DNA of 64,000 nt from a virus: positions 20,187 to 84,186 of the IMG/VR virus record IMGVR_UViG_3300009506_000011, one strand, 5' to 3'. Each line of letters starts with the position of its first letter. Within the stretch, counting starts at the first letter, position 1. The notes below the pieces were generated by a model that was not told the DNA's origin, searched no databases, and saw only the letters and a program-made list of their open reading frames with translations. Made by a program: the position numbers and the translations under genes. Below are positions 6,685 through 43,999 of the stretch, in pieces.

Positions 6685-7239
6685 TCATGGCCACCTCGTC
6701 AGCTGGACATCGTCCGGCACTCGTGCCTTGCTCCGGGCGAGCGGATGCTTCGGGCTTCCGTCGCTGTTCTTGCCGAGGCACCACAGCTCGCGGCGCTCGT
6801 CTCGGCGCAGCGGCGCGGCTAGCCGCTGGCGGATCGACTCGCCGCGCTCAAGCGTCCACGGCTGCAGCAGTGCGCCCCAGGCTGCCACCACAAGCTCGGC
6901 TGACTGCGCGGCTCGCAGGACGTGGTAGTCATTGTGGACGCCCACAGCGGCCAGCAGACCGCGCTGCTTGATGGTCCGCTCGACCACCGCCGGATCGGTG
7001 GCTCGGAGAGCGAAGAGATTGACGACGATCAGGCTGCCGAATCCCCACCGGCGGCTGAAGCGGATGCAACGGCGGATCGTTGGATCGTCTTGCTCCGCGT
7101 CCGCGGTGGATGGATTGCACATGATCCAGCAGACGACCGGCCCGCCGCCGCCGCACGGTCGCACGAGGGTCCAGCGGTAGCGTCCGCAGCCGCTGATCCC
7201 GGCACCGTAGCCGACGGCGAGCGTGAGCTGCTGTGTCAC
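6685..7239 (-). CDS. DUF1643 family protein
   Basis: CGRYRWTL..WIMCNPSTADAEQDDPTIRRC..NLFALRATDP..AWG..KHPL. Confidence 0.9.
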   Translation of the reverse strand: MTQQLTLAVGYGAGISGCGRYRWTLVRPCGGGGPVVCWIMCNPSTADAEQDDPTIRRCIRFSRRWGFGSLIVVNLFALRATDPAVVERTIKQRGLLAAVGVHNDYHVLRAAQSAELVVAAWGALLQPWTLERGESIRQRLAAPLRRDERRELWCLGKNSDGSPKHPLARSKARVPDDVQLTRWP

Positions 7240-8057
7240 GACCGCCGCCGCTCCCGGAGAGCAAGTTCGATTTTGGCGTGTGCGGCGTCGGCATCATGTC
7301 GGCTTCGGATGCCACCTAGTAGCGTGGCGTAGTCAGCCTCTGCCGGCGCGGCGTGGCCGCTCGCGAGCACGTCCTCTGGCTTCAGCCGCACCAGCAGTTG
7401 GGCGCACAGCTCCGTCGCTCCTTCGCGTCCCAGCTCTGTGATGAGGCGCTGTGCGGTGGTCTCGGGGTCCGTGACGAGGTCCGTGGGCGTCTGGCCTTCG
7501 AGGTGGAGACTCACCTCGAAGGCTGCTAGGTGGCAGTCATCGCATGCATCTGACAAGCGCTCGTGACAGACCAGCTCGGAACGGATCTGCTCTATCCTCT
7601 CTGGCGTGCACTGGGATATGACATCGTTGCACGGTTCAGCGGGGGCCGTCTCTACTGTCAGCCAGGCGATGAGATCTCCCAGGTCAGCGCCGATCCAGTC
7701 GGCCGCCGCCCACATCGGCTCCGGCTCGCCAACTTCGAGTAGGACGGCCGTCGGCTTGTCTGCGCCGATGGCGTAGCCAAGCTCGAGGTGAGCGCTCCGG
7801 CCGCACGGCATGACGAGCACCAGCGCGTCGCAAGATTCGAGCGCCTGCATATCGCAGACGAAGCTCCGCTGGGCGATGGGGTGCTTCAGCGCCTCGACGA
7901 CCTCCTCTGCCGACCAGCTCTCCCAGGCTGGATCAATATCCGACCAGTGGAAGTCAGCGTGGGTGCGGAAGTCGTAGACATCGTTGCCGGCGGCGCGCAG
8001 CGCCTGAACGACGCCGGGCTGTCGCGGATTTCTCCAGCTGCTTGCAACATAGATCAT
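7236..8057 (-). CDS. Nucleoside 2-deoxyribosyltransferase-like protein with C-terminal extension
   Basis: IYVASSWRN..D..AL..CDALVLVMPCGRSAHLELGYAIG. Confidence 0.8.
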   Translation of the reverse strand: MIYVASSWRNPRQPGVVQALRAAGNDVYDFRTHADFHWSDIDPAWESWSAEEVVEALKHPIAQRSFVCDMQALESCDALVLVMPCGRSAHLELGYAIGADKPTAVLLEVGEPEPMWAAADWIGADLGDLIAWLTVETAPAEPCNDVISQCTPERIEQIRSELVCHERLSDACDDCHLAAFEVSLHLEGQTPTDLVTDPETTAQRLITELGREGATELCAQLLVRLKPEDVLASGHAAPAEADYATLLGGIRSRHDADAAHAKIELALRERRRS

Positions 8058-10127: not shown

Positions 10128-10609
10128 TGGCACTACCCCCCGCACGTCTCACGAAGGGCGATCTCGGCGGCGTCAAAGTCGACGAGGGAACACCGACCAA
10201 CAACCAGAAGTACCACCTCGGCAGGGAGATCAACCTGTCGAATGACCTTGTCGTGGGCATGAACCTCACCACGCCGCGCACTCTGGTGCTGACGGAGTGG
10301 GACGATCCGGACATGGTCGTGCTGTTCTCCGGCGAAACCTGGGATCCGGAGGAGGCGGCTGTGCCGACCGTCACGCGGCCGACCGGTGCGGGCAAGTACG
10401 TCATCGAGTACGCCGCCAGCTACACGGACTACGACGGCAACGAGATCGCGCCGGCGCTCATCGCCGCAGACGTCGCCATTCAGGATCTCAACACCGCGCT
10501 GCGCGCTCGGGCGAAGGTCCAGGCGGATGGCCGGACCGTCGATGTCTGGATCTGGGACAAGGACACGAACGTCTTCACCGACGCGCGGGTGCTGGTGACG
10601 GTGTACTGA
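10127..10609 (+). CDS. Tail/baseplate-associated protein
   Basis: Translationally coupled within the baseplate operon; TGAGKYVI beta motif. Confidence 0.55.
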   Translation: MALPPARLTKGDLGGVKVDEGTPTNNQKYHLGREINLSNDLVVGMNLTTPRTLVLTEWDDPDMVVLFSGETWDPEEAAVPTVTRPTGAGKYVIEYAASYTDYDGNEIAPALIAADVAIQDLNTALRARAKVQADGRTVDVWIWDKDTNVFTDARVLVTVY

Positions 10610-14317: not shown

Positions 14318-14385
14318 GCGGAGGGCGGCTCCGCGTGCCTCGTCAGCGCCGGCGCGACCCGGCGGACGCCTCACGGCGTTTCGGC
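14318..14385 (-). ncRNA. Type II hammerhead ribozyme with 3' hairpin
   Basis: gcc-GAAA-cgcc(gtga)ggcg-TC-cgccgg(gtcgcg)ccggcg-CTGACGA-ggc; complete core; GUC cleavage triplet. Confidence 0.9.
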
Positions 14386-14448
14386 TCTTTCGAGTGTCAC
14401 GGCTTTCGCCGGCCTATGGCATGGCACACCTCCTCTCCTGTGTCCCCC

Positions 14449-17014: not shown

Positions 17015-17015
17015 C

Positions 17016-17082
17016 GCCGAAACGCCGTGAGGCGTCCGCCGGTCGCGCCGGCGCTGACGAGGCACGCGGAGTCGCACTCCGC
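17016..17082 (+). ncRNA. Type II hammerhead ribozyme with 3' hairpin
   Basis: gcc-GAAA-cgcc(gtga)ggcg-TC-cgccgg(tcgcg)ccggcg-CTGACGA-ggc; predicted cleavage after C17036. Confidence 0.9.
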
Positions 17083-17106: not shown

Positions 17107-18132
17107 ATGAAGATCCGAGTTATCGTAGACCAGAAAACCGCACTCCGAGAAGGCATCGACGCGCCGACGAGCGCCTGCCTGATCGATATCGATCCTGCCG
17201 AGCTGACGGAGGAGGAGCGCGAGGTGCTCGCGTCCCTGCTCGCGTCCAACCACGACACCACCGCGTCGACACTGCAGGCCGCGTACGGTCAGTACCGCCA
17301 TCTCGAGGTGGTGTCGCAGGACCTCGGCGGACTTCGGCGCGGCCTCGCCGATCTGATCGCCTGGCGTGACCAGGTGCAGGCCGAGTGCATCGAGAAGCGT
17401 CGCGAAGCGGACGATCGGATCGACGCCGCCATTGCAAACCCGCCGCCGCCGCGCCGGCAGCTGGTCCGGCTGTCCGGCGGCGGCGTCATCGACGCCTACA
17501 GCGAGGACGAGACCACGATGGCGCTGGAGCTGCCGAGCGCGCCGGCGCCCGGCTACCTGCCTCACGCCTCCGAGGAGGCGCAGGAGCGGCTGTCGGCCGC
17601 GCGGCGCGCTGTCGACTTGGAGGAGGCGCGGCTGCGCGAGGCTGCGCGACCGGAGCTTGAGCGGCTCGTCGCCGCTCGCGACGAGAAGCGCCGTCTCGCC
17701 GAGGAGGCGAAGCAGGCCGAGTACAACGCCGTCTACCAGCGCCTGCCGGTGATCCTGCGCGAGCGGCACAGAGCCGGCTACGCCTCTCCTGGCGAGGTCC
17801 GACTTGCCTTCCAGCAGCAGGTGCTGGCCGACACTGGCCAGGAGCTGGATCCTTGGTGCACGGCCGAAAATGCCAGCTCCGGAGAGCTGGCATGGCTGAG
17901 CAACGACGAGTTCCTCGCGCTCCAGCGCGCTCGCGCGGCTGCGCCTCCCGGCGCCACAGTGACGCCGGCGCTGATTTGGCTGAGCGAGCGGAGGCCAGCC
18001 ACCGAGGCGGAGCTCGACGACGACCTGGCCGACGAGGACGACGAGATCGAGGAGCGCATCGACGAGAGGCGCGTGTTTCTCGTGCGGTGGACGGTCGGCG
18101 GCGTGCCGATCACCGCCGTCGTGCCCATGTAG
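17107..18132 (+). CDS. Hypothetical coiled-coil protein flanked by hammerheads
   Basis: MKIRVIVDQK start; 341 aa. Confidence 0.7.
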   Translation: MKIRVIVDQKTALREGIDAPTSACLIDIDPAELTEEEREVLASLLASNHDTTASTLQAAYGQYRHLEVVSQDLGGLRRGLADLIAWRDQVQAECIEKRREADDRIDAAIANPPPPRRQLVRLSGGGVIDAYSEDETTMALELPSAPAPGYLPHASEEAQERLSAARRAVDLEEARLREAARPELERLVAARDEKRRLAEEAKQAEYNAVYQRLPVILRERHRAGYASPGEVRLAFQQQVLADTGQELDPWCTAENASSGELAWLSNDEFLALQRARAAAPPGATVTPALIWLSERRPATEAELDDDLADEDDEIEERIDERRVFLVRWTVGGVPITAVVPM

Positions 18133-18211
18133 CCGAAACGTTGCCGCGCGAGCGGCGGCGTCCACCGGTAGCACCGTGTGCCGATGATGGCAGAGCGAGG
18201 TAGCTCCTCGC
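18132..18211 (+). ncRNA. Hammerhead ribozyme variant (CCGAUGA-U core)
   Basis: gcc-GAAA, 9-bp stem III with GCGA loop, TC, stem I, CCGATGAT-ggc; covarying 3' hairpin. Confidence 0.7.
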
Positions 18212-21452: not shown

Positions 21453-22586
21453 CTAGCTGGCGTGCCACAGCAGCCGCGCCTGCGCCACCTCCGCTGGCGG
21501 CACCGGCCCGCCGATGTATCGGAATGACGCGGTCATCTGGGCTAAGCGGGTTTGCGTCGTTTGGTGCCGCCAGTGTATCGCGCGCCGCACCTTGCGCTCG
21601 CGCACCATCTCCCAATTTGGCGAATGCATCCGCGACGCCACCTGCGCCGGATGGGTGGGGGTCGTGCGCAGGCCGAGCCCGTTGGTCGCGGCGATGGCGC
21701 CAATCTTGTCGCTCAGCGCTGTCCCGATGCCGATCCCCTGAAAGTCTGGCAGCACGACCGTCCGGCTCGTGCGCCAGGTGTTTTTGACGTATCGGTGGGG
21801 GAATGGCATCACGCCGCAGAAGGCTGACGGGGCCCCGTCAATGAGCCCCATGAAGCACTTGGCAGACTTGTTCAGCTCGTGCGTCAGGTAGTGATGCGGA
21901 GCGAACCACGGCCAAGCCGCATGCTCGCAGCGGACGATCTCCAGCTCGATCCGGGGCCGGGGTTGAACCGACCTCCACGTCACAAGGCCGACGTGAGGCG
22001 CTGGGCGAGGCTCTAGGATCCAATCGGGCTGCAGCCACTCGACGAGGTCATCGTGGCAGGAGACTGCCACGAATCGCCGGTTTGACCGGCGCACGTGCTT
22101 TGCGACCGCAGCGCTGCCGATCTGGGCCACCTTCCGGTGGACGACGCTGGTGTACTCGTCGATTGCCACAAGCGGCCGCGGGTCGACCAGTGCTCTGGCG
22201 AGGTTGCACCGGAAGCGCTCGCCGTTGGACAGGACCCGGAACGGACGGAGCCACGCCGGCGGCGACGAGAAGCCCACAGACGACAGAGCCCTGATGACGT
22301 TGTCGATGGGCAATGCCTCATCAAACTCAGTGACCACGGCGCCGTCGCCCCAGTCGTAACCCTCGATCAGTGCATCGCCGAAGAGGTGCCGGGCAATGCT
22401 TGTCTTGCCGCAGCCGCTCGGGCCGGTAATGAGCCCGATGCTCCACGGCCTCGCGTCGAGGTCCACGTCAGCGCGAATCTCCACCACGCTTTCAGCGGCA
22501 GACGGGATGTCGTACATTCCCTCCACTTGCTTCACCCGGGCCGTTCGCTCAACGCCCGTCGCAAGCCTCAGATCAACGCGCGGCAT
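21453..22586 (-). CDS. ABC-type ATPase fused to a GNAT acetyltransferase
   Basis: Walker A GPSGCGKT, signature LSNGE, Walker B IDEY; C-terminal RTVVLPDFQGIGIG. Confidence 0.85.
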   Translation of the reverse strand: MPRVDLRLATGVERTARVKQVEGMYDIPSAAESVVEIRADVDLDARPWSIGLITGPSGCGKTSIARHLFGDALIEGYDWGDGAVVTEFDEALPIDNVIRALSSVGFSSPPAWLRPFRVLSNGERFRCNLARALVDPRPLVAIDEYTSVVHRKVAQIGSAAVAKHVRRSNRRFVAVSCHDDLVEWLQPDWILEPRPAPHVGLVTWRSVQPRPRIELEIVRCEHAAWPWFAPHHYLTHELNKSAKCFMGLIDGAPSAFCGVMPFPHRYVKNTWRTSRTVVLPDFQGIGIGTALSDKIGAIAATNGLGLRTTPTHPAQVASRMHSPNWEMVRERKVRRAIHWRHQTTQTRLAQMTASFRYIGGPVPPAEVAQARLLWHAS

Positions 22587-23191
22587 GGCCAGCCCAGCTC
22601 CTCCAGCTCGCGCAGCTTTTCGAGCTGGTCCTCTTCGCCCTCGCACTCGACGACGATCGCGAACTGCTTCTGAGCGTCGCCCTGCCTGCGTCGCTGCTTG
22701 TTTCGCTCCTGGCTCTTGTCTGGCTCAGGCTCGATCTCAAGGCTCAGCAGCTGAGCGAACTGCTCCTCCGCGAACCCCAGGTCGAGCGCGTCGCTGACGT
22801 CCAGCTCGATGGGGCGAAGCGCCTCTGCCAGCGCCTCGTCCGTCCAGCTGCCCCGGCGCGTGTAGAGCTGCACCGTCAGCCGGCGCGCCTCGGCCTCGGT
22901 GATCCCGTCGAGGTAGACCGCCGGGCCTTCGAGCAGTCCGACGTCCAGAGCGCAGGTCCAGCGCTGCTCGCCGTCGATGATGACGTTGCGCTCCTCACCC
23001 TTTTCGTCCGTGCGCCAGACGAGCAGCGCCTGCGAGCTGAGCCAGCCCTCCTTCATGAAGCCAGCCTTCATGCTCTCGCGCTCCAGCTCGGTCATGGTGT
23101 TGCCATTCCAGCCGTTGGGCCGGAGCTTCGTCAAATCAACGATCTCAGTCTTGCCGCGGACGTGCGGCTGTCGCTTGCGCTTCTTCGCCAT
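22568..23191 (-). CDS. ParB/Srx-like protein
   Basis: LRPNGWNGNTM..IIDGEQRW. Confidence 0.8.
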   Translation of the reverse strand: MAKKRKRQPHVRGKTEIVDLTKLRPNGWNGNTMTELERESMKAGFMKEGWLSSQALLVWRTDEKGEERNVIIDGEQRWTCALDVGLLEGPAVYLDGITEAEARRLTVQLYTRRGSWTDEALAEALRPIELDVSDALDLGFAEEQFAQLLSLEIEPEPDKSQERNKQRRRQGDAQKQFAIVVECEGEEDQLEKLRELEELGWPCRALI

Positions 23192-23441
23192 CTCTCCTCC
23201 GTCGAGCCATTGCTCGTACCGCCGCCAGCCGACGCTCGCGGTCGAGCTGCCAGCGGATCGGCGGATACAGCCTCGCCCATCGCTGTACCGTGCTAGCTGG
23301 CCAAGCTAGCTTTGCCATGTCGCCCCCGGCGCGGCGGATGGCGGCCATGACGAGGCGCCTCGCCGCCGCCTCCCCACGCCTCAGCCGCGCGCCGAGGGAC
23401 CGGCCGCTGTCAGCCACTGGAGCTGGCCAGGACGGCATCAT
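23145..23441 (-). CDS. Small HTH-like protein
   Basis: AIRRAGGDMAKL..STVQRW; coupled to neighbouring genes. Confidence 0.45.
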   Translation of the reverse strand: MMPSWPAPVADSGRSLGARLRRGEAAARRLVMAAIRRAGGDMAKLAWPASTVQRWARLYPPIRWQLDRERRLAAVRAMARRRRDGEEAQATAARPRQD

Positions 23442-24313
23442 GCCGCGCAGAGCCCCCACGCGACGCAGCTCGGCGTCCCCTCAAAAAACCAGTCGTGCTG
23501 CCGGCCGCCGCGGCTCGTCCGCGCCCAGCTCACCGCCTCGTCGATCGGCCGGTTGGTGCTCTTGATGTCGTCGTCGCGCCGGGCAAGCTCGGCCTTGGTC
23601 AGCTGCCGGGAGAACATCGTCGGCGGCGTCAACCCGAGGCTGTCGAAGGTCTCTCCCCGCGCCTCATAGCGAAGGCGCGCCGCCTCTTGGACGTCGGCCT
23701 CGAGCTGCCGGATCTCGTCGATGCGCGCGGGATCCAGGTCCGCTACCAGCCGGATCGCCGCCTTGCCAGAGCAGACACAGGGCCAGCAGCCGACACGCTC
23801 GGCGCCTTGCAGGTAGAGAGGGTTGGGCGCCAAACCGTGCCGGCGGTGGATCGCGATGACCTCGTCCTTCGTCCAGTCGATGATCGGCCGCCATACCTCG
23901 ACATCTCCCCACGCCAAACGACCGCGTGGCACGTCACGCTCCGGCAGCTTCGCGCGGCGGCGGGACTCCTCGCGACGCACGCCTACCGCGTTGACGACGT
24001 GATCATCAAACCGTGCCATCCAGGCCGCCATCGGCTCAAGCTTGAGTGTGCGCGTACACCATCTCATGCGGGGCGTACGGCTGGGAAACATGCCTTTCTT
24101 GCGGCACCAGTCGGCAAAGCCGCCGCCGGGCGAGCGCACCACGTCGATCTGGCCGAGCTTGTCCTGCAGCGGTCCCAGCACGTACTCGACGGTGGACGGG
24201 TGCTCCCATCCCGTGTCGGCGAAAACCCGCAGGTGCTCGATGCCTTGCTCCAGCAGGTAGAGGCACGCAGCGGCGCTGTCCTTGCCGCCGCTCACGCTCA
24301 CAATCGTGGTCAC
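23438..24313 (-). CDS. PAPS-reductase-family (CysH/DndC-like) protein
   Basis: SVSGGKDS PP-loop, FADTGWE, RWCT..LK, GVRREESRRR, NPLY..RVGCWPC. Confidence 0.9.
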   Translation of the reverse strand: MTTIVSVSGGKDSAAACLYLLEQGIEHLRVFADTGWEHPSTVEYVLGPLQDKLGQIDVVRSPGGGFADWCRKKGMFPSRTPRMRWCTRTLKLEPMAAWMARFDDHVVNAVGVRREESRRRAKLPERDVPRGRLAWGDVEVWRPIIDWTKDEVIAIHRRHGLAPNPLYLQGAERVGCWPCVCSGKAAIRLVADLDPARIDEIRQLEADVQEAARLRYEARGETFDSLGLTPPTMFSRQLTKAELARRDDDIKSTNRPIDEAVSWARTSRGGRQHDWFFEGTPSCVAWGLCAA

Positions 24314-24597
24314 TGCACCCCCGGCAGATGAAGCAGCAGCCGCAGCCAGGCCGGGGTTCGGCGCGCTTCCCGCGCCATCCGCGCTCGTCTGGCTGGACTG
24401 CTGTCCGTCAACGCCTCATGCCAGCACTGTCGCCGCCGTTGCAGCTCCTGGCGGACCTTGAAGGTAAGCCACGCTTCTAGCCACTTGAGCAGCGCGCCAG
24501 CACGCGGTCCGCGGTTTTCTAGACGCGGGCGGGAATCGAACCCGCCCCCGGGACTGGAACCCGGGGCCCGCCATCGGGCCGCGTGCTGGCGCTTCAT
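24310..24597 (-). CDS. Possible leader ORF containing the tRNA-like structure
   Basis: Leaderless ATG after the promoter; GTGA-coupled to the PAPS reductase gene. Confidence 0.35.
   Translation of the reverse strand: MKRQHAARWRAPGSSPGGGFDSRPRLENRGPRAGALLKWLEAWLTFKVRQELQRRRQCWHEALTDSSPARRARMAREARRTPAWLRLLLHLPGVQ
24523..24584 (-). ncRNA. Minimal tRNA-like four-way junction (CCA at anticodon position)
   Basis: ACGCG|GCCCG-ATGG-CGGGC|CCCGGG-TTCCAGT-CCCGGG|GGCGGG-TTCGATT-CCCGCC|CGCGT; all stems perfectly paired. Confidence 0.75.
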
Positions 24598-24632
24598 TCT
24601 GCCATGCTAGCGTGCTAGGCGGCAGACGTCAA
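24598..24632 (-). promoter_or_regulatory. Promoter overlapping a GCTAGCGTGCTAG box
   Basis: TTGACG(24632-24627)-N17-TAGCAT; 13-mer at 24606-24618. Confidence 0.7.
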
Positions 24633-24946
24633 GCCTTCCAGGCGCGGGCCGAGATCTCGCAGCTGTCGCCGCCGGGCCACACGGTGGCGGTGCCGTGGTA
24701 GGTCGCCGAGATCTGCTCGTCGCCCAGCCGGTGCGTCAGGACCAGGGTGCCGTCCACCGGGATCTCGTCTGCGCACGGCGGTCCCTCGGTGACGTCGCAG
24801 CGGACCGTGGCCGAGCCGTCGGAGTGGTCGAGTGTGACCGCCGCGTCCAGCGACAGCGCCGGCGGAAGCTCGTCTCGCCACCGACGGCGGATCTGCACCA
24901 TGGCCTCCAGCGCCAGCCAGAGCGCCACAGCGAAGGCCGATCCCAT
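24629..24946 (-). CDS. Hypothetical protein with N-terminal hydrophobic segment
   Basis: MGSAFAVALWLAL; TGATG coupling. Confidence 0.5.
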   Translation of the reverse strand: MGSAFAVALWLALEAMVQIRRRWRDELPPALSLDAAVTLDHSDGSATVRCDVTEGPPCADEIPVDGTLVLTHRLGDEQISATYHGTATVWPGGDSCEISARAWKA

Positions 24947-25680
24947 CAGGCTCTCGACCTCCGGCGGATCAGCACCTGGAGCAGCTGAAGGAGAACGGCG
25001 CCCGTCATGCAGGCGTTGATCGCGACGACCTCGGACCAGACCTCGAGCAGCGTTCTGCCGGTCGCCCACGGAAGCGCGGCGGTCGCGATCGAGCCGGCCA
25101 AGAGAGCAATCGCGCAACCGGCCGCCGGCGATGGCGCCGGCCGGCCGCTGTCAAAAAGCCAGCGGCGCAGGTAGAGCAGGGACACGAGCAGGCCGCCCAG
25201 CTCAACGGCGTAGTAGAGCGAGAGCAGGTCATCGCCTCGAAGCTCCGGGTAGGCGACGACTACGAACAGCCACAGGCCGAGTCCAGCCGCGGCGACAGAC
25301 CACCACGAATAATTTGTGATTTTGAGCCACATTGTGACAGGGTTCGGGCCACTTGTGCTCATGGTTTTCGCGGAATCATTGGAGTTGCACCGCGAATATT
25401 TCGGAGCAGAAAAGACACACACTGCCAGCGCCGGCAGCGCGAGGATCGAAGCGAGGTACAGGCCCGCTTCGCCATGGCGAGCTGCCAGCCCCCAGCCGCT
25501 GCGGACGTCGTCCGTCGGCGGCTGCGCCGCGCTCAACGCAAGCCTCAGAAGGTCGAGGACGACGACGATCCAGAGGTACCACGCCACCGGCCTGACGCGG
25601 CTGTCCCGCCGAGCGGCCGCCACAGCGGCAACGCCCGCGACGCCAGACAGCGCCAGCAGGCTGACGTGGAGCACGGTCAT
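24946..25680 (-). CDS. Multi-pass membrane protein
   Basis: About 7 hydrophobic segments. Confidence 0.7.
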   Translation of the reverse strand: MTVLHVSLLALSGVAGVAAVAAARRDSRVRPVAWYLWIVVVLDLLRLALSAAQPPTDDVRSGWGLAARHGEAGLYLASILALPALAVCVFSAPKYSRCNSNDSAKTMSTSGPNPVTMWLKITNYSWWSVAAAGLGLWLFVVVAYPELRGDDLLSLYYAVELGGLLVSLLYLRRWLFDSGRPAPSPAAGCAIALLAGSIATAALPWATGRTLLEVWSEVVAINACMTGAVLLQLLQVLIRRRSRA

Positions 25681-26230
25681 GGCTCAGCCGCGAAGCTTCC
25701 AGAGCGCCAGCGCCGCGTCCGGGTGGACGATAACGCCGGCGAAGTCGGCGGAGTCGTAGGTGACCTGGCGGCCCTCGACGTCGCACGGCAGCTGCTCGCC
25801 CCGGTGAAGCTCGGGATCCTGGTAGATGACGAGCTCACCTCCGTCGATCGTGGGCTTCCAAGGGTTGGGTGGTGTTCCTCCTGCTGGCATGACCGGAAGA
25901 TAGCCGGTCATGAGCACCGGGGCTAGCTGGCGGCCGCCTCATATCCACGAGCCGGTTCATGGGCTGATCGTCCAATTGCAGAACGGATCGAAGCGATCAC
26001 CCTTTGGGCCGCGGAAGAAGCAAAACCAGTGACCGATGCCGTGGCGGCCATAGCGCACCTTCTCGGCACGCTCGTAGCACTTGAGCGCGTCACCATCGCG
26101 CCCGAGCCGTGCGAGTCGGCTAGCCTCGCGATAAAGGCCATCGCAGCGAAATTGCTGCGTGACGATGTGCAGCTTGGTCCGCCTCCGCATCCCACTTGCC
26201 TACCACGGTCGGCTCTGCTAGTCAACTAGC

Positions 26231-26725
26231 ATGCGATGCCCAAAATGCGGCGAAGCCGCCGAGCTGCTCAAGAAACCGTGCTGCGAGGACGCGTGGTCTG
26301 ACCACGTGGTCGACCACCCAAACGAGGCCGTCGCGGCGCTCCAACGGGGAGACTACGGAGGCGCCGCCAAGGCCGCAACCGAGCAGCTGGCGGTGGCCTT
26401 CGCCGTCATCACCGCAGCTGACCTCGCCAGCGGCGCTTCGCATCTGAGCGAGTTTCTTGTCTCGGGACGGGGCATCGCTCAAGTAACCTCTGCCGGACCG
26501 GTGGAGGCGCGGCTCGTGGCGAAGCTCAGAGCGAGCATCGGGCGTACCGCCGGCTCCGTCGTTTCCCGCGACGAGCAGCACACCGTCATGGCTGTGCTGC
26601 GGGTCAAGCTCGACTGGCGGACCAGGCTCCGCGCGCTTTGGCGTGGTCGGCTCGCCATCGAGACGTCTGTCATGACGGAGCGCCTGCCCGGTCGCGCCTC
26701 CTGGAGCTGTCGCGTGGTAGGCTGA
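26231..26725 (+). CDS. Hypothetical protein
   Basis: N-terminal CPKC..CC; divergent from the TTGACT promoter at 26225. Confidence 0.5.
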   Translation: MRCPKCGEAAELLKKPCCEDAWSDHVVDHPNEAVAALQRGDYGGAAKAATEQLAVAFAVITAADLASGASHLSEFLVSGRGIAQVTSAGPVEARLVAKLRASIGRTAGSVVSRDEQHTVMAVLRVKLDWRTRLRALWRGRLAIETSVMTERLPGRASWSCRVVG

Positions 26726-26728
26726 GCC

Positions 26729-27115
26729 ATGCCGGATTTTCAGCTCAAGCCCATCGGCTCCGAGGTGGTCGACTGGGACGATCCCGCGACGACGGACACG
26801 CCGAGCCGGCTCAACCCGGTGGTGCGCCACCCGCACAAGTATCACCGGATCTTCCGAAACTTTCCTCTCACGATCAAGGCCATCGTGGACGGCATCGAGG
26901 GACCCGCGGATGGCGCACTCGGTGGCCGGCTCTTCGCTTGGAGCTGGGTGGTCACGCGGGAGTCTGGCTACGCGCCGCCGATTCCGACGTCTGCCGGCTT
27001 CAGCAGCACGGTGGTTTTCCCGGCCTTCCACTTCCTCACCGGCCACTACGAGCTGCTGTGCTCGCGGCCTGACGGTGGCGCCGTAGGCGTCACCTTCGAG
27101 ATCGAGGACACCTGA
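26729..27115 (+). CDS. Probable virion structural protein
   Basis: TAGGCT-N5-ATG leaderless start like the other tail genes; beta-rich. Confidence 0.5.
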   Translation: MPDFQLKPIGSEVVDWDDPATTDTPSRLNPVVRHPHKYHRIFRNFPLTIKAIVDGIEGPADGALGGRLFAWSWVVTRESGYAPPIPTSAGFSSTVVFPAFHFLTGHYELLCSRPDGGAVGVTFEIEDT

Positions 27116-27804
27116 GACGGCCGGCCCCACTCATAGAGCGCAATGGCCAACGCCCCTTCAACGGTCAAGCCCGAAACGCGCCCCTGCATCGGAATGGTCG
27201 CGTAGCGAACCGGTAGTCCCCTGGGAAGCCCAGAGCTTTCCCCGCCGAGCAACAGCGTGTCAACTGTCTCGAAATCAACGCCATCGAGCGAGTTCAGGGT
27301 GCCGGTTTCCAACGCTAGCACCCCGTTACCGACTGGCAGTTTATCGATGCCAGCGACATCAACGCGCCCCTTCGCGCCGTAGAGGTTGCCGCTCAACCCA
27401 CCAGCGCACCTGTGGGTAAGCAAGCTGCGCACGCCGAACGCCTCACAGGTCCGAACGGCGCGGTTGAGGTTGCGGCCGACGCGGTGCAGCACAACGCGTC
27501 CCACGGTGCACATGGTCAGCAAGCGGACCAGCAAGCCGGTACGGTCACGGCCGTGAAAGCAGTGCACGAGCAGCGGCCTGCCAGCCGACAGGGCGACGCT
27601 AAGCGCTGCTTGGGCTCCAGCGCCGCTGTAGCTTACTGGACTCTTCCGGTAGCCAATGCCGGCGCTGAGGCAGGCGCGCTCGACGACTGGCCTTGGTCGT
27701 TGCGTCAGGTCCAGTACGGCCTGCCCACCGGCGGCAGCAAAAGCAACGATATCTCTGCGCCTTGGCAGAGCTGAGCGCCAGATCCCTGGTAGAAACTCCT
27801 TCAT
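27046..27804 (-). CDS. Cys-dependent (DSP/PTP) phosphatase fused to a SPOUT (TrmH/TrmL-like) RNA methyltransferase
   Basis: LLVHCFHGRDRTG; NLNRAVRTCEAFGV..LLLGGESSGLP..IPMQGRVSGLTVEGALAIALYE. Confidence 0.85.
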   Translation of the reverse strand: MKEFLPGIWRSALPRRRDIVAFAAAGGQAVLDLTQRPRPVVERACLSAGIGYRKSPVSYSGAGAQAALSVALSAGRPLLVHCFHGRDRTGLLVRLLTMCTVGRVVLHRVGRNLNRAVRTCEAFGVRSLLTHRCAGGLSGNLYGAKGRVDVAGIDKLPVGNGVLALETGTLNSLDGVDFETVDTLLLGGESSGLPRGLPVRYATIPMQGRVSGLTVEGALAIALYEWGRPSQVSSISKVTPTAPPSGREHSSS

Positions 27805-28562
27805 GTCGTTCCGTCTATGACTTCGCGATCTCCGCAGATTTCACGTAGCAGGTCTGGGTAATAAGCCAGCTCCCACTCAACACGCCCGAAGCCGGCACCT
27901 CGCTTGCCGCCTAGGCTCGCAACCCTGATCTTGCGGCGGTCAAAGAGTCCGCCTCGGGTCATAGCATAGGCAGGGTGGACAGGAAGCTTGTGCTTGTAGA
28001 GGTACGCGAAGACGTCTTCTGGCTGCCACCATCCAATCGGAGCGCAAGTGTGGGCCGTGGCGATGCCGTAGAACTTCATCCGCATGTTCCGGCCGCTGCT
28101 CTCCTCCCCTCGAATGCCGGATACGTGGCGCTCGCCGTAGCGTTCGCGAGCCAGCGCGAAGCCGCGTTCAAGCGTCCCCTTTGCATGCCAGCCGTCGGAA
28201 TCGCGTAAGCAATGCACGACGATCTCATCATACGGTAGCGGATACTTGCGCAGGAATCGGTCTCGGACCTCGCCACACTCCGGCGAGCATATGGGCTCAA
28301 CGCGCACCCAAACAAGGGGCAGCCGCACCGTCTCACGATAGAACAGGCGCCACGCCAGGTGCGCCGCTACCGTTGAGTCCTTGCCCCAGCTCACACCGAC
28401 GTAGCAGGGGCCTGACTGTGCGAACTTGTGCAGCTCCCGGATGGCCTTCTGCTCCTTGCGCTCCAGTGCCCTGAGCCGAGCGCGCAGGTGGTCCTCACGC
28501 TCGCACGTCTTCCAATGCGCGATGTCGTCTGAGCGATGTCGTGGCGAGGGAACAAGGGTCAT
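27801..28562 (-). CDS. cysH: Type IV-B-associated CysH-like (PAPS reductase family) protein
   Basis: VSWGKDS, SGIRGEESSGR, PIGWWQPEDVFAYL..LPVHPAY; in the csf operon. Confidence 0.85.
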   Translation of the reverse strand: MTLVPSPRHRSDDIAHWKTCEREDHLRARLRALERKEQKAIRELHKFAQSGPCYVGVSWGKDSTVAAHLAWRLFYRETVRLPLVWVRVEPICSPECGEVRDRFLRKYPLPYDEIVVHCLRDSDGWHAKGTLERGFALARERYGERHVSGIRGEESSGRNMRMKFYGIATAHTCAPIGWWQPEDVFAYLYKHKLPVHPAYAMTRGGLFDRRKIRVASLGGKRGAGFGRVEWELAYYPDLLREICGDREVIDGTT

Positions 28563-29499
28563 GCCGCGCTAACCACAATCCGACCAAAGCCGAAGGCCGT
28601 GCGTCCACCGAGCCCCGGCCCATTGGCAGCGCACCTCAGCAGAAACTCGCCCACGGCGTTTGTGTCCACCACCACGTGCCCAACCCAACCGGAGATCAGG
28701 CCATACTTACCGCCCATGTCGACGACCTCCTTGCGGCTGTCGTGTGAGATCACTTTGAGCATGAGGCTGTCCCGGTCGAAGCTGTCCACGCCGACGCGCT
28801 CGGGCAGCTCGGTGGCTAGGGCCGCGGTCAGGGACGTCTGCGTCGGCTGGATTCTCAGTGTGGCCCTGCCGGTGGACTGGATGACGACAGGCGTCAGGGC
28901 GTCGATCCGCAGCTTGCGATGACCTCGTTTGGAGACGCGCGGGTACCGCGGTCGCCAGCAGGCGCCGAACCCCACCTCGACGGGCGCCTGAACAGCTCCG
29001 CTCCGACGCGCCGCTGCTCGTACAGGGCCCGTGCGGCCTCGGCATCACGAACGTAGATTGCCCAGCCGATGCCGCGCCTGTGGGGCAGCAACGCCCATTC
29101 TGGCCAGCGCTGGTGCTGCAATCCGAGCAGCGTGGTCATGAGCCCATGAAGGGCGCGTGTGTTGCGGTGGTCAACCGGCCAGCGCGGCTCTGGCTCGATG
29201 AACAGCTCGAAGCCCAGGCCCGGCATGTAACCGGCATACGGCGGAGCTCCGAGCAGCCAAGGCTGACGCTTGCTGCAGCCTCGCTTCGCTGCGCACCATC
29301 TGGCATTGCGCGCCCGAGCACTTGCCACAGACCGCGGCGTCGCCAGCTTGGAACGCTGCCGGCGCTTCCCTTGGCAAACCGGGGCGCCGCAGGTCTTCTG
29401 GTGCTTGCCCCTGGGCACGAATGGGGCCTCGCAGACTGCGCATCGGTACGTTGTGGAGATGCCGTCGGCGGTAGTGTAAACCTCAGCTTGGGACTGCAC
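28559..29499 (-). CDS. cas6: Zn-finger-Cas6-like RAMP, frameshift near 28983
   Basis: AAGGAG RBS with GTG start; CAVC..CGAPVC; ALHG; LTPVVI; GWVG; C-terminal G-loop GLGGRTAFGFG; two ORFs join with +1 nt at a CCC run. Confidence 0.7.
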
Positions 29500-30133
29500 A
29501 GAGCTGCTCCTTGGCATGTGCCCAGTAGGGGTACGTCAACGTGCGGTAGGCCATCTGCGGGTCAGCTAGGCCCGGCCAGTCGGGTGGCAGTGAGCGAAGC
29601 GGGCGCCCGTCGCGCACCACCGGGAAGCCGTCCCACGGCTCGCATGGCTCGACCGACCAGCGGCGGACCTTGCCCAGTCCAACGCCGCGCTTCTTGCCGA
29701 GATAGCTGATGATGGCGAGCAGCTGCGCAATCTCGACGCGCTCGCCGATACACCACCAGCACATGGCGTCGTTCACCATGTGCTGCCCCTCGAGCGGCAA
29801 ACGATAGCTCTTGCAGGGGCCAGCGCTGATGAGGACCCGCCGAAGCTTCGCGTCGCCCATGGCCTGCGCCTCGGCGAGTGGAAAACGGCGGTTGACCCAC
29901 CGGCGCTCCACGCACTCGACCTCGGAGACGCTGAACGACGCGAGGTGAAAGCGGCCGTCTGGCTCGCGCTCAATCGGGATCTCGATAGGCTGCACATCGG
30001 CAGCGCTGAGCGGCGGCGGCATCCCGTCCCGACGCGCCACCGCAGCGGCAAGCAAGGCGTCGATGGCCAGCGGTCCGCCGGGGAGCGCGATGGGGCCCAG
30101 CAGCTCGGCGGTGATGATGAGCGGCTCAGGCAT
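29483..30133 (-). CDS. csf3: Type IV Cas5-like subunit Csf3
   Basis: PLIITAEL..LAIDALLAA..GPCKSYRLP..YLGKKRGVGLGKVRRW..LR.LP..PYW. Confidence 0.85.
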   Translation of the reverse strand: MPEPLIITAELLGPIALPGGPLAIDALLAAAVARRDGMPPPLSAADVQPIEIPIEREPDGRFHLASFSVSEVECVERRWVNRRFPLAEAQAMGDAKLRRVLISAGPCKSYRLPLEGQHMVNDAMCWWCIGERVEIAQLLAIISYLGKKRGVGLGKVRRWSVEPCEPWDGFPVVRDGRPLRSLPPDWPGLADPQMAYRTLTYPYWAHAKEQLCAVPS

Positions 30134-31112
30134 TGACCGACCGGAGGAACTCGGCGATGCGGTCCTTCCGCTTCGCCACGTGGCTCCTGAACAGCGAGCC
30201 TACCTGCTCAGCGAGCGCGGTTACGTCTACCGGGGTCAGCTCGGCGGTCGTCACGAAACGGACGTCCTGCCCGGCTACGACGCGGAGCAAGCCGTGTCCG
30301 GTGCCGCGTTTGCCGCCCACCCGAGCGTTGGTCAAAAAGGCCGCCATGGCCACCTGAAACGTATCGAACTGCAGGTCGTCGTAAACGGTTGCCTCGCATG
30401 CCCAGGAAAAGCAGCTCCCTTGTGCGACACGCTCAAAGCGGCGCGGCATCATGCTGGACTTCTCGCGCTCCCTCCCGACTGCGTCGCCCTCGGCGCTGGC
30501 TTGCTCTGAGGCGGTGAGCCGGCGGTTGATCTCGACCTGATCTCCGACCGGAAGCAGCCGACGCTTTTGCGGGCTGAGGGTCGGATCCATGCGGGTGCGC
30601 TGGACCTCCTCGACGTGGGCCCGGCAGGTGTCCAGCTCACCGAAGTGCTCGGCCGCGAATGCCAGGGCCCAGCTTGGGACGTAGCGAACCGACTCCTCGC
30701 AGATGAGCGTCGCGTCCTCGACGACGAGCTGGCCGGGAATGACGCGGTTGTCTGAGCAGCCACCGAACAGCGTCATGCTGGGCACGAGCTCGCACAGCTC
30801 CCGGTAGCGGTCCAGGTTGATGGTGCCAGCGGAGCCGCGGCCTGTGACCATGCCGCCGGCGAAAAGCAGGCGCAGCGCCGCCTCTGAGAGCTTCTCTTCG
30901 CCCAGCAGCTCAGCGGCCTCGAGAAGGGCATAGGCCGCTGCCTCGCGCATCCCGTGGCGCATCGTGTCGCCGGTGATGATCGGCACGTGGGCCCAGCCGC
31001 CGTTGTGCCGGAGCTTCCGGCGCATGATGACCGCCTCGTTGCCGATTGTTTCCTCGTGATGAGCAATCGGCAGCGCCGCCTCAAGCACGCACTCATATCG
31101 CTTCAGTCGCAT
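30126..31112 (-). CDS. csf2: Type IV Cas7-like backbone Csf2
   Basis: PIAHH..VPIITGDTMRHGMRE..LLFAGG..SMTLFGG..VGGKRGTGHG. Confidence 0.9.
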   Translation of the reverse strand: MRLKRYECVLEAALPIAHHEETIGNEAVIMRRKLRHNGGWAHVPIITGDTMRHGMREAAAYALLEAAELLGEEKLSEAALRLLFAGGMVTGRGSAGTINLDRYRELCELVPSMTLFGGCSDNRVIPGQLVVEDATLICEESVRYVPSWALAFAAEHFGELDTCRAHVEEVQRTRMDPTLSPQKRRLLPVGDQVEINRRLTASEQASAEGDAVGREREKSSMMPRRFERVAQGSCFSWACEATVYDDLQFDTFQVAMAAFLTNARVGGKRGTGHGLLRVVAGQDVRFVTTAELTPVDVTALAEQVGSLFRSHVAKRKDRIAEFLRSVNA

Positions 31113-31554
31113 CTCTACCTCTCTTATCCCAGCACTGCAGACATTGTCCCATCGGCGGAAGATCATAGGACATGACCAATCCGCACGTTTTGCATGTACG
31201 TTTCCTGCTTTCGGCAGCAAGCCGAGCCATGGCCATCAGCAGGCCGTACTCCCGCTCAACTAGGTCGAGCCATTCACCGGCAGCTCCCAGCTCCCCGACA
31301 GCGGCGCCGAGGTCAACCAAAGCCCGGCAGCCATCCTTGCCGAGCGTCGGAAGCTGCAGCCCCCGCTGCATCGCCGTCGCCCACTCGTCCGGGCTGGCCG
31401 TCCGTCTGGCGGCGCTCAGCATCCTGTTCTGGATTTGCTCCCAGTGCTTCAGCGGGCTGCCGCCGGCGGCAAGGTAGGCCCTTCGCAGCTCGAGCAGCAG
31501 CTCCACGGTCTTGGTTCGCAGGCTTTCGCGCTGCTTTTCGTCCAGCCTTGGCAC
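31093..31554 (-). CDS. cas11: Type IV-B small subunit (Cas11-like) with C-terminal CxxC-CxxC
   Basis: AAGGAGG RBS; helical KHWEQIQNRMLSAARR..EW..RGLQL; located between csf1 and csf2. Confidence 0.7.
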   Translation of the reverse strand: MPRLDEKQRESLRTKTVELLLELRRAYLAAGGSPLKHWEQIQNRMLSAARRTASPDEWATAMQRGLQLPTLGKDGCRALVDLGAAVGELGAAGEWLDLVEREYGLLMAMARLAAESRKRTCKTCGLVMSYDLPPMGQCLQCWDKRGRDATEAI

Positions 31555-32299
31555 GCTTCGCCTCCTTTTCTGCGGCCATGCGCCGCTTGACTTGGTCCTC
31601 GTCGCGCTGCGCCAGCCACAGCGCCAGCGCGAACCATCCGCCGCCGCGCAGCTGTCCGCCTTTGGCCTCGAAGCGCTGCAACGTCTCGCTGCACAGCTGC
31701 CAGGCGCGCGCCTCGTAGCGCCCCGTTTCAAGCTCGGCTTTGGTGGCGCCAGCAGTCAGCAAAGACGCCAGCTCGTCAACAAGCGCCCATCCAGCCTCGT
31801 CGCCGGGAAGCCGGATCCTGGTCTCGTCGAACAGCACCCAGCCGCCGGGACCAGGAGGGTTCACCGGGGTCCACGGCAACACGTGTTTCTGGCCGCTGTC
31901 GGCGATGGCCGCAAACCAAACGCCACGGTGTGGCCGCCGGAGAAACTCAAGCACGACGGGCTTCTCGCCCTTGCTCGCGTTCAGGTACCGCGGCTCAGCC
32001 GCCGCGTCGTACAGGTGGGAGTAGTTGCGGTAGTTGCCGCCGAGCTTCTTACCGGGGGCTGGGGGGCGCCCGGGGACCGGGGAAAGCCTGGCACAGAAGT
32101 AGACGCACGGCTCGCAGACCCATTTGCTCTCTGGACAGCGAACGCGGTTTTGGCCTGTGAAGGTTGAGCCGTTCCACAAGCTGACTGGCTGGCCCCGTGT
32201 CAGCGAGGCGGCGCAAAGCCAGCAGCGACCATCGGCCGGCGCGCAATCGGTGTGCATCGGAGCGCCGAGGTGGTGGTGCAGCAGGCGCGTGGCGCTCAT
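31313..32299 (-). CDS. csf1: Type IV large subunit Csf1 (Cas8-like)
   Basis: CWLC..STFTGQN..SKWVCEPC Zn finger; IADSGQKHVLPW.PVN. Confidence 0.85.
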   Translation of the reverse strand: MSATRLLHHHLGAPMHTDCAPADGRCWLCAASLTRGQPVSLWNGSTFTGQNRVRCPESKWVCEPCVYFCARLSPVPGRPPAPGKKLGGNYRNYSHLYDAAAEPRYLNASKGEKPVVLEFLRRPHRGVWFAAIADSGQKHVLPWTPVNPPGPGGWVLFDETRIRLPGDEAGWALVDELASLLTAGATKAELETGRYEARAWQLCSETLQRFEAKGGQLRGGGWFALALWLAQRDEDQVKRRMAAEKEAKRAKAGRKAARKPANQDRGAAARAAKGLPCRRRQPAEALGANPEQDAERRQTDGQPGRVGDGDAAGAAASDARQGWLPGFG

Positions 32300-32335
32300 G
32301 ACGGGCATCCTGCCAGCCGCTAGCGTGCTAGTCAA
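32300..32335 (-). promoter_or_regulatory. Leaderless promoter of the csf operon with GCTAGCGTGCTAG box
   Basis: TTGACT(32335-32330)-N17-CAGGAT, then 7 nt to ATG; 13-mer at 32319-32331. Confidence 0.7.
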
Positions 32336-32382
32336 GGAAAACCGACAGAGCCTGACGCGGCTGTCTGGCCTACTCTGTCCAG

Positions 32383-32745
32383 GTGCCAGATCCGCGCTAC
32401 ACGCCCTACGATGAGCTGTCGGCCCATTGGGTCGGCGCTGAGGCTCTCAAGCTCTCGCTTGTCGACCCCCTCTCACCGCTGCGGGCCAACGTCCCGATCG
32501 ATCTGGCAGTCGACTACAGCGGCGCCGGGGAGGAGGGCGTGACGCTGCCGCTCGAGCAGCTGGTCGTCGGTCCCTCACCGGAGAGCTTCCGGCGCCACGT
32601 TCACCGCCGGCAGACGCCGAGCATCATCACGTTCACGCCGCCGCAGGGCGGACGCCACATCGTCACGCTCCGCCAGATTGGCGGCGACAAGCTCTTCGGC
32701 AAGCTGGCCGTAGAGGTGGAAGGAGAGCTTCTGGATGGGAGCTGA
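32383..32745 (+). CDS. Probable virion structural protein
   Basis: TACTCT-N6-GTG start; overlaps the tail fibre start. Confidence 0.5.
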   Translation: MPDPRYTPYDELSAHWVGAEALKLSLVDPLSPLRANVPIDLAVDYSGAGEEGVTLPLEQLVVGPSPESFRRHVHRRQTPSIITFTPPQGGRHIVTLRQIGGDKLFGKLAVEVEGELLDGS

Positions 32746-42803: not shown

Positions 42804-43999
42804 TGGCCCGCGGCCGCATGCTTCTCAAGTCGCTGAGCCTTTGTGGCCAGCTTGCCGATCTGTCAGACGACACGGCACGACTGCTCTTCTGCATGTGCGT
42901 CCCACACCTTGATCGGGAGGGACGTTTGCAGGGCGATCCCCGGCGTCTCGCGGCGACCGTGTGGCCGCTGCTGCACGGTCCGCAGCCGACCGCACGAGCG
43001 CTGGCGGAGCTCGTTGAGCAGCGACTCGTCGCCGTCTACGACGATGAGCGCGGTCAGACTGTCGTTTGGTTCCCGGCCTTCGAGCGCTCACAGCCTGGGC
43101 TCCGACGGGACAGAGAGGCGGAGAGCAGCTACGGTCCGCCGCCTTCGTGCGAGCCCTCTGGTTTGGTGCCTGCGTGGCTGCGGGAGTACTCCGGACCTAC
43201 TCCGGAGCAATCCCGCGGTGGTCCGGAGTACTCCGGAGTTTTCCCGGAGTACTCCGGACCTACTCCGGAGCAACCCGAGCTAAGTGTTCGAAAGGTGGAA
43301 ACTCCGGAGTTTTCCCGGAGTACTCCGGGAGTGCTCCCGCCTAAATCAAAGGAAAGTAAAGGAAGGGAGGTTGCCGCGCGTGCGCGCGTAGCAACCGCCG
43401 CGCCACCACCACAACAGGAGCAGGCGGTCTGCGAAGGGTGCGACGATATCGCCGAGTGCGGTGCCGATGGTGTGCCAGTGGGATGGGCGGATGGGCTCTG
43501 CCCCGAGTGCCAGCGCCACGACGTGAGCCAAACCGCCGGCTACCTCCAAAGCATCAAGAACCAAGGAGCCAAGCCAGCGCCACCGTCCAAGCTCGGAACG
43601 GCACCCATGAACCCGGTGGCGCGCCAGCTGGCGGAGCATATTAGGACTCACCGGCGCTTCGATGGCATCGACGCTGGCGAGATCGGCAACAGCAACGCTC
43701 ACCTCGTCGAGACGGGTGGCAAGTCGCTAACCTGGCTGAAGGAGGCGATCGACGAGTGCAACCGGGACGCCGGCTCAGCCGCCGCCGCCAGGCGGCCCTG
43801 GTCCGACGATGTCCTCGCGCAGAAGCTTGGTCGCTACCTCTGGAAGGCAAGGCGCCCGGAGCCGAGCGATGCGGGAGAGGAGATCCACCATCACCCCCCG
43901 CTCTTCGTGGACAACGGACCGCGCCCGACCCCGGAGCAAACGCGGCAGTTTGCGGCCGAGGCGCTGGCGAAGTTCCGCGCCGGCAGGAAGGTGCCATGA
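42803..43999 (+). CDS. Phage replication initiator protein
   Basis: MARGRML..LSDDTARLLF..DREGRL.GDP; internal iterons; upstream of DnaB. Confidence 0.75.
   Translation: MARGRMLLKSLSLCGQLADLSDDTARLLFCMCVPHLDREGRLQGDPRRLAATVWPLLHGPQPTARALAELVEQRLVAVYDDERGQTVVWFPAFERSQPGLRRDREAESSYGPPPSCEPSGLVPAWLREYSGPTPEQSRGGPEYSGVFPEYSGPTPEQPELSVRKVETPEFSRSTPGVLPPKSKESKGREVAARARVATAAPPPQQEQAVCEGCDDIAECGADGVPVGWADGLCPECQRHDVSQTAGYLQSIKNQGAKPAPPSKLGTAPMNPVARQLAEHIRTHRRFDGIDAGEIGNSNAHLVETGGKSLTWLKEAIDECNRDAGSAAAARRPWSDDVLAQKLGRYLWKARRPEPSDAGEEIHHHPPLFVDNGPRPTPEQTRQFAAEALAKFRAGRKVP
43182..43339. repeat. Iteron cluster (probable origin)
   Basis: Multiple GGAGTACTCC / ACTCCGGAG palindromic repeats inside the initiator gene. 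Confidence 0.75.

Follow-up and report, generated by a model that had tools for sequence, protein, structure and literature searches.

An array-less type IV-B CRISPR effector operon with a phosphatase–SPOUT methyltransferase gene in a tailed phage

Type IV-B is a CRISPR–Cas subtype of unexplained function. It is defined by csf1, cas11, csf2, csf3 and a cysH-like gene, with neither an array nor Cas6 (PMC7038947, PMC8175902, PMC7937560, PMC12669027), and published discussion of it has centred on the CysH-like gene. What might such a complex do for a virus? The question is raised by a minus-strand operon (32335-27046) in a 64,000-nucleotide stretch of phage DNA, hereafter the window, which comprises bases 20187-84186 of the 84,186-bp IMG/VR virus record IMGVR_UViG_3300009506_000011. 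Its seven genes follow one another in the order csf1, cas11, csf2, csf3, a zinc-finger Cas6 gene (ZnF-Cas6), a cysH-like gene and a gene that fuses a PTP-type phosphatase to a SPOUT methyltransferase. From sequence comparison, we are highly confident of these gene identities and of the linkage of the SPOUT and phosphatase genes to the cassette. The overall reading that we favour, and consider on balance probable, is that of an array-less type IV-B filament with a dedicated phosphatase–SPOUT accessory that marks or protects RNA.

The effector operon and its fusion gene

All seven gene assignments are profile or fold matches. The Pfam and NCBIfam matches were weak but specific, and the PADLOC models, most of them matched over the full profile, were decisive. 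The first gene, csf1 (31313..32299, minus strand), encodes a Cas8-like large subunit with an N-terminal CxxC...CxxC finger; it matches PADLOC Csf1_0_IV over its full length (residues 9-238, E = 2.3e-23) and TIGR03114 (2e-6), and it has homologues in 100 related loci. Its conserved body ends at about 31590 and the frame stays open on to 31313, giving an overlap of about 240 nt with cas11. The frame switch from csf1 to cas11 in third-codon-position G+C (GC3) falls near 31650, and the codon-position G+C within 31313-31554 favours the cas11 frame. A long csf1/cas11 overlap is present also in two related loci (L004 and L005) and not in a third (L006).

The small-subunit gene, cas11 (31093..31554, minus), has a GTG start behind AAGGAGG and matches PADLOC typeIV_Cas11 (2.1e-4, positions 5-118 of 120). 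When its profile was compared with the PDB, the top match was Csf4/Cas11 of 7JHY, a weak one (E 0.12); the position of the gene between csf1 and csf2, and its size, are kept in 88 loci. A C-terminal CxxC...CxxC ribbon of Cas11 (31116-31210) is peculiar to this phage: its closest relatives, including the nearest (L136), are without it, and a contig that is about 95% identical (X3) has 17 nt in place of the ribbon region. The Cas7 backbone subunit, encoded by csf2 (30126..31112, minus), matches PADLOC Csf2_0_IV over its full length (6.8e-40), TIGR03115 (1.3e-10) and Csf2 of PDB 7JHY (4.8e-7), and the Cas5 protein encoded by csf3 (29483..30133, minus) matches PADLOC Csf3_0_IV over its full length (1.9e-34) and TIGR03116 (1.5e-12).

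The cysH-like gene (CasCysH; 27801..28562, minus) encodes a PP-loop protein that matches PF01507 (PAPS_reduct, 2.8e-8). Its PP-loop, SxGK(D/Q)S, and a G-x-R-x-EES-x-x-R motif are conserved in 14 orthologues (alignment A5). The C-terminal redox cysteine motif of true PAPS reductases was not seen in this alignment of 14 orthologues, in agreement with Cas-associated CysH as described (PMC8175902). The operon thus holds Csf1, Csf2, Csf3, Cas11 and a cysH-like PP-loop gene without the redox cysteine, as type IV-B loci do. It departs from the definition of the subtype in having a Cas6 gene, albeit a frameshifted one, and we regard it as a variant whose membership of type IV-B stands. A preliminary description of this DNA had proposed a phage-borne, array-less type IV-B effector operon with these seven genes in this order on the minus strand; the profile and fold matches place the open reading frames (ORFs) in Csf/RAMP families and, together with the whole-genome searches below, bear that proposal out.

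The last gene joins two enzyme domains. Residues 1-100 hold a Cys-phosphatase domain of the PTP/DSP type (27505..27804, minus) with the P-loop HCFHGRDRTG and a match to PF13350 (Y_phosphatase3, 6.9e-6). Residues 101-232 hold the motifs of a SpoU/TrmH-class SPOUT methyltransferase (27046..27504, minus; PF00588, SpoU, 1.8e-6), and a 23-residue tail overlaps the convergent gene. In the phosphatase, C82, H84, G85, R86, D87 and R88 are invariant in 18 homologues and the catalytic Cys aligns with that of TpbA; structural Z scores are 13.4 to a DUF442 phosphatase, 11.2 to the baculovirus RNA 5'-phosphatase and 11-13 to many DSPs. The model of the fusion protein (pLDDT 87) gives structural Z scores of 16.1 to TrmH and 15.8 to RlmB, with TrmL-type enzymes also matched, and Foldseek matches the SPOUT domain to RlmB at 1.2e-8. 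Across 23 members of the family, three motifs are conserved: VGRNLNRAxRT, GGE(T/S)xG and LTVEAALAIALY. Motifs and model together predict an enzyme of the RNA ribose 2'-O-methyltransferase class.

Neither Tandem Repeats Finder nor a seed-chaining scan of all 84,186 bp detected a CRISPR array. Profile searches of the genome, whose positive controls responded, found no Cas1, Cas2 or helicase domain of the DinG/RecD type, and no nuclease or helicase effector was found. The lack of an array, cas1/cas2 and DinG, first noted for the window, therefore extends to the complete genome, which holds no array elsewhere that could supply the guides.

Linkage of SPOUT genes to type IV-B loci

To see how SPOUT genes are distributed, the alignment of the SPOUT family was scanned against viral, genome and metagenome collections, the loci were annotated by iterated profile searches and duplicates were removed. 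These locus scans yielded 26 distinct SPOUT loci; the neighbourhoods of 45 protein-database homologues stand outside this count. The precomputed Pfam annotation of one database protein, P0045, names Cas6 as well as SpoU. Every one of the 26 has csf and/or cysH genes alongside on the same strand, and the loci span a G+C of 0.38 to 0.67. The co-occurrence of SPOUT genes with csf genes, on which the preliminary description depended in part, is thus upheld by the neighbourhood survey. Matches to the phosphatase motif alone were, as expected, unrelated stand-alone phosphatases.

In 10 of the 26 loci, SPOUT has a PTP domain as its partner. This domain lies N-terminal to SPOUT in the window and in L006, L007, L136, L138, L139 and L143, forms a separate upstream ORF in L008 and comes after SPOUT in L150 and L152. 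In another five loci, an unrelated HAD domain, in which the motifs DxDxT, T/S, K and DD are all present, stands before or after SPOUT. That non-homologous phosphatases replace one another, and do so in both fusion orders, argues strongly for a single substrate on which dephosphorylation and methylation both act.

Using the Csf2 alignments A3 and A4, we collected about 96 distinct phage type IV-B loci from the viral collection. On a quick maximum-likelihood tree of Csf2, the topology of which is provisional, SPOUT loci fall at no fewer than eight places, often beside near-identical SPOUT-less loci such as L011 and L060. Given this scatter beside SPOUT-less relatives, SPOUT behaves as a mobile, dedicated accessory. 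In the X3 contig, the segment that carries cysH plus the fusion gene (27114-28564) is exactly swapped for 1449 unlike bases, which fits cassette-like exchange. The nearest relative, L136, has a Csf2 that is 81% identical, the same seven-gene order and an intact ZnF-Cas6. That order is found in L006 too, where the slot of ZnF-Cas6 is taken by a member of a different Cas6 family (PF09559, 9.6e-37).

Several features of these loci are recorded here in their own right. Matches of a jackhmmer search termed 'cas6m' outside L006 proved not to be Cas6: they comprise only a C-terminal domain of about 100 residues without a Pfam match. This domain recurs in or beside the operons (L006 8990-9298, L007 8640-8903, L005 about 10287-10568, and others), and the L006 copy is joined to the PF09559 Cas6 at the end of that protein. 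The SPOUT-bearing operon of L008 has a gene with a Vsr/DUF559-type endonuclease domain (6988-7899; 3e-9) between cas11 and csf2, and L032, a type IV-B operon without a SPOUT gene, has a PTP gene (8640-8927) between csf3 and cysH. One further locus (L178, 3840-7473) belongs to the isolated actinobacterial Skermania phage SPI1 (KR011061), in which Orf40-Orf44 are annotated as hypothetical; the five genes are sized and ordered as a type IV-B cassette, and Orf42 is a Csf2 homologue (27% identity, 9e-14).

Candidate functions of the operon

That the SPOUT family lies inside type IV-B cassettes in all copies found points to RNA modification as a type IV-B job. Csf1, Cas11, Csf2 and Csf3, components recognized by homology, would build a Cas7-filament ribonucleoprotein, and this filament would hold or capture an RNA. 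Where Cas6 is active, it may cut the held RNA and leave a cyclic or 3' phosphate, with ribozyme cleavage as an alternative source of such ends. The phosphatase would free a ribose hydroxyl or an end phosphate, SPOUT would then methylate the 2'-OH, and the CysH-like protein may supply an ATP-dependent adenylylation step. The outcome would be an RNA that is chemically marked or protected, rather than a cleaved nucleic acid, and the probable benefit would be an advantage for the phage against RNA-based defences of the host or of rivals.

We infer that dephosphorylation plus 2'-O-methylation of RNA held or captured by the Csf filament is the likeliest function. The specific chemistry, in which the phosphatase frees the ribose position or end and SPOUT methylates the 2'-OH, is a tentative proposal. 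Bolder still, and in our judgement distinctly unlikely, is the idea that the filament serves as an RNA-programmed platform, steering the phosphatase, the 2'-O-methyltransferase and a CysH-like adenylyl-transfer enzyme to chosen RNAs. If true, such a platform would give the virus a Cas-based equivalent of box C/D-guided ribose methylation, with which it could protect RNAs of phage or host against defence ribonucleases or disarm host guide RNAs.

Several observations weigh against the favoured reading. No phosphatase is visible in 11 of the 26 SPOUT loci, and SPOUT itself occurs in about one-tenth of the phage type IV-B loci; the pair is thus optional, so the core function of type IV-B would be independent of it. 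The SPOUT domain scores 28.6 bits against its Pfam model, just under the curated cut-off of 29.7, and the fold matches of the PTP domain span protein, lipid, inositol and RNA phosphatases, with no substrate class singled out. No conserved non-coding RNA or mini-array was found beside the operon, and Cas6 is broken in this very genome.

The search for RNAs gave no match to Rfam at gathering thresholds and no ARAGORN tRNA in the window, and Rfam in E-value mode over 24300-32500 found nothing within the operon. Elsewhere in the window, a type II hammerhead ribozyme model gives three full-length, sub-threshold matches, at 14329-14386 (minus), 17015-17071 (plus) and 18131-18199 (plus), with scores of 27-31 bits, where the gathering score is 37, and local E of 0.0016-0.018. 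Those at 14329-14386 and 17015-17071 are intergenic and almost identical, in inverted orientation. Hammerhead cleavage leaves cyclic phosphate ends, the type of end on which a phosphatase and a 2'-O-methyltransferase could act. A tRNA-like element at 24522-24575 (minus), weakly similar to mascRNA (E 0.058) and to YrlA (E 0.53) and not called as a tRNA by ARAGORN, lies downstream of a promoter-like site that has the same 13-mer as the csf promoter described below.

The rival that survives best, although we consider it unlikely, is conventional interference in trans, guided by CRISPR RNA (crRNA). Here Cas6 would process host or co-resident pre-crRNA, the Csf complex would target rivals or the host, and CysH, the phosphatase and SPOUT would be effectors or guide-maturation factors. 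The use of arrays in trans has been proposed for type IV-B (PMC8175902). Cas6 and the arrays of related phages both bear on this explanation.

In this genome, the ZnF-Cas6 gene is split into an N-terminal part (28982..29517, minus), in which a C4 finger and a basic region precede the first RRM-like half, and a C-terminal part (28559..28981, minus), with the second RRM-like half and the G-rich loop GLGGRTAFGFG. The C-terminal part matches PF10040 (4.5e-3) and PADLOC Cas6 (8e-5). The first 180 or so residues are in one frame and the remainder in another: the frame is lost at a CCC run (28984-28982; CCC, not CCCC), beyond which the ORF continues out of frame to 28894. A tblastn search with the intact L004 Cas6 matched residues 3-73 to the N-terminal frame and 102-226 to the other, with their order kept, and alignment with the intact L136 orthologue fixes the junction between AELFRRP and VEVGFG. 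The AlphaFold model of the intact L136 protein (pLDDT 76) is matched by Foldseek solely to Cas6-type endoribonucleases (Cas6, Cas6b, Cse3, Csf5), Cas6 subunits of larger complexes included; the best match is the S. thermophilus Cas6 6fjw (E 1.9e-8), and the type IV Cas6 6NJY is also among the matches. H113 is invariant in alignment A6 and is predicted to be catalytic, and the zinc finger and basic stretch that precede the Cas6 fold are found again in several orthologues.

Contigs from four metagenome runs were compared over Cas6. An independent assembly of the probable source sample also has CCC. An independent metagenome of 2025 supplies a near-identical contig with one base more, which yields a single ORF of about 313 residues, and a contig of about 95% identity from a third study has the same extra base (an extra G behind 28981), which restores Cas6 to a single ORF; the frame is intact in both the X2 and X3 contigs. 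Because all 12 other loci of this Cas6 family have a single intact ORF, we read the split as a strain-level one-base deletion, and programmed frameshifting was set aside on the same ground. The other six genes of the operon are intact in this genome. Cas6 and the phosphatase–SPOUT gene are, as first described, additions beyond the canonical gene set, with the corrections that Cas6 is frameshifted here and is common rather than exceptional in this phage clade, with the family of the window in 13 loci and a Cas6 in most of the 15-locus Csf2 subtree around the window.

Among 18 related loci searched for arrays and two-repeat mini-arrays, only that of the sister phage L005, whose Csf2 is 55% identical to that of the window, has one. 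In its incomplete record (L029), six 36-nt repeats with 29-39-nt spacers occupy 255-686, about 2 kb downstream of cysH. The repeats contain a GTGATC...GATCAC hairpin and are joined by one degenerate copy, and a 665-residue ORF without a family match precedes the array. 'Array-less' is therefore true of this phage and not of the whole clade. Searches found this repeat in no further viral record and no match between the spacers of the array and the related phages. This array, together with a Cas6 family that is intact, with its invariant histidine, in 12 related loci, speaks for guidance in trans. Against it, five related phage genomes taken whole, four of them rated complete, hold neither an array nor a unit resembling the L005 repeat; Cas6 is inactivated here while the remaining operon is intact; and the lack of a nuclease or helicase effector is at odds with interference.

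We give little credence to a second rival, an anti-defence sponge in which the Csf filament would sequester guide RNAs of the host for chemical inactivation by the enzymes. The idea has been published (PMC7038947, PMC8175902), the carrier is a phage, and the RNA in the solved type IV-B complex is heterogeneous, of non-CRISPR origin and bound with no preference for sequence (PMC7937560), a property that also speaks for the favoured reading. However, the authors of PMC7038947 themselves rate such a complex anti-CRISPR unlikely, and a sponge leaves the optional presence of SPOUT unexplained.

We are equally sceptical that SPOUT, the phosphatase and the CysH-like protein modify tRNA or rRNA of host or phage by themselves, for example to block anticodon nucleases, and are only passengers alongside the csf genes. 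Some PP-loop enzymes modify tRNA, and the structures closest to the SPOUT domain are those of the tRNA/rRNA 2'-O-methyltransferases TrmH, TrmL and RlmB. The exclusive csf/cysH linkage in all 26 loci and the translational coupling nevertheless argue for action together with the complex. It is highly improbable that the operon is a decaying remnant whose Cas6 frameshift marks a loss of function in this phage: the one-base deletion is present in both the IMG/VR record and the independent assembly of the probable source sample, but no other gene of the operon is broken, the catalytic motifs are conserved, an intact Cas6 allele exists in near-identical DNA of another metagenome, and many type IV-B loci work Cas6-free by design.

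Genomic setting and comparison with known systems

The seven genes are tightly packed: neighbouring genes share 4-35 nt at their ends, and at Cas6/cysH and cysH/SPOUT the start and the preceding stop overlap as ATGA. Starts placed from the sequence are ATG at 32299 for csf1, GTG at 31554 for cas11, and ATG at 31112 for csf2, 30133 for csf3, 29517 for Cas6, 28562 for cysH and 27804 for the fusion gene. Just upstream of csf1 lies a promoter-like site (32307..32335, minus) formed by TTGACT (32335-32330), a 17-nt spacer and CAGGAT (32312-32307). It is overlapped by the 13-mer CTAGCACGCTAGC (32331-32319), a likely operator. An extended box, TTGACTAGC, has five copies in the window against 0.14 expected (positions 2096, 3452, 26217, 32327 and 40614), and the 13-mer GCTAGCGTGCTAG has four against 0.18 expected (3480, 24606, 32319 and 53359); the two motifs probably mark a family of phage promoters and operators to which the csf operon promoter belongs. 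This recurrence makes a single regulated phage promoter for the operon plausible, and the first in-frame ATGs, at 32308 and 32299, suggest that its mRNA may carry little or no leader. The earlier picture of one promoter driving coupled genes therefore stands as far as the overlapping and ATGA-coupled ends and the recurrent box are concerned, whereas a strict sigma-70 consensus scan called no promoter upstream of csf1. The same description took the flanking genes for putative virion genes; the plus-strand genes on either side match no PHROG or Pfam family, and the label has no support from these profiles.

The genome has a G+C of 67%, direct terminal repeats of 144 bp at its ends and a completeness rating of 100%. 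It is that of a tailed phage, with recognisable large terminase, portal, MuF-like head protein, major head protein, tail sheath and tape measure genes, as well as a DnaB helicase and a RecE/RecT pair. The probable source sample is a marine sediment metagenome, and megablast of the operon against GenBank phages gave no match. Elsewhere in the window is a second PAPS-reductase-family gene, unrelated to the operon cysH (23438-24313, minus; phrog_424 1.5e-57, PADLOC SspD 3e-24), which shares an operon with an ABC-ATPase/GNAT fusion (21453-22646, minus); the phage thus has two PP-loop 'CysH-like' genes of differing affinities. A cluster of 21-nt repeats containing a palindrome (GGAGTACTCC core), inside or beside a 398-residue ORF (43183-43340), resembles replication-origin iterons rather than a CRISPR array. 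A tandem duplication of 99 bp, with 60 bases identical, lies within a coding region at 4988-5186.

A dedicated ribose methyltransferase that is coupled to phosphatases of unrelated folds, and that stands here beside Cas6, makes the question of type IV-B function concrete: one can now ask for the identity of the bound RNA, the nature of its ends and the presence of 2'-O-methyl groups on it. The survey also indicates that phage-borne type IV-B is common, and an isolated phage, Skermania phage SPI1, bears an unannotated copy. If RNA modification is indeed the function, a Cas complex would have exchanged its cutting role for one of chemical marking. In the searchable literature, we found no SPOUT or phosphatase partner described for type IV-B, and the literature that combines cysH, CRISPR and SpoU is not on type IV-B.

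How does the operon compare with known systems? It shares with the type IV-B locus on the Mycobacterium sp. JS623 plasmid (PDB 7JHY) the five core genes and their order, as well as the lack of an array, adaptation genes and a helicase or nuclease. It differs from that locus in its tailed-phage carrier, Cas6 gene, phosphatase–SPOUT fusion and extra Cas11 zinc ribbon, and its sequence identity to type IV-B reference models is low. Cas6 is rare in type IV-B of cellular genomes, with 12 instances (Pinilla-Redondo et al., PMC7038947), and a type IV-B locus with a mini-array is described for Fuxivirus (bioRxiv 10.1101/2023.08.24.554615). Like those loci, the present operon combines the core genes with an RNA-processing component on a virus or plasmid; unlike them, it has a Cas6 with an N-terminal zinc finger, placed between csf3 and cysH, and no mini-array.

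The logic of phosphatase end-healing followed by 2'-O-methylation of a 3'-terminal ribose is shared with bacterial Pnkp–Hen1 RNA repair, by analogy only. The proteins are non-homologous: the Hen1 methyltransferase has a Rossmann fold and the phosphatase of Pnkp belongs to the metallophosphoesterases, whereas the methyltransferase here has a SPOUT fold. Pfam and NCBIfam profiles detected no kinase or ligase domain in the operon, which places it outside the Pnkp–Hen1 systems. The SPOUT domain has the three SpoU motifs of the SpoU/TrmH enzymes (TrmH 1V2X, RlmB 1GZ0, TrmL/CspR 5CO4) and superposes on their fold with Z 15-16 and an rmsd of 2.1-2.5 across about 132 residues. In contrast to them, it is a minimal domain without an RNA-binding extension, is fused to a phosphatase, has the asparagine of motif 3 replaced (LTVE) and is found only in type IV-B cassettes. 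To what is known of type IV-B, the window adds the combination of SPOUT with a zinc-finger Cas6, the displacement of the phosphatase between two folds and the Cas6 allele data.

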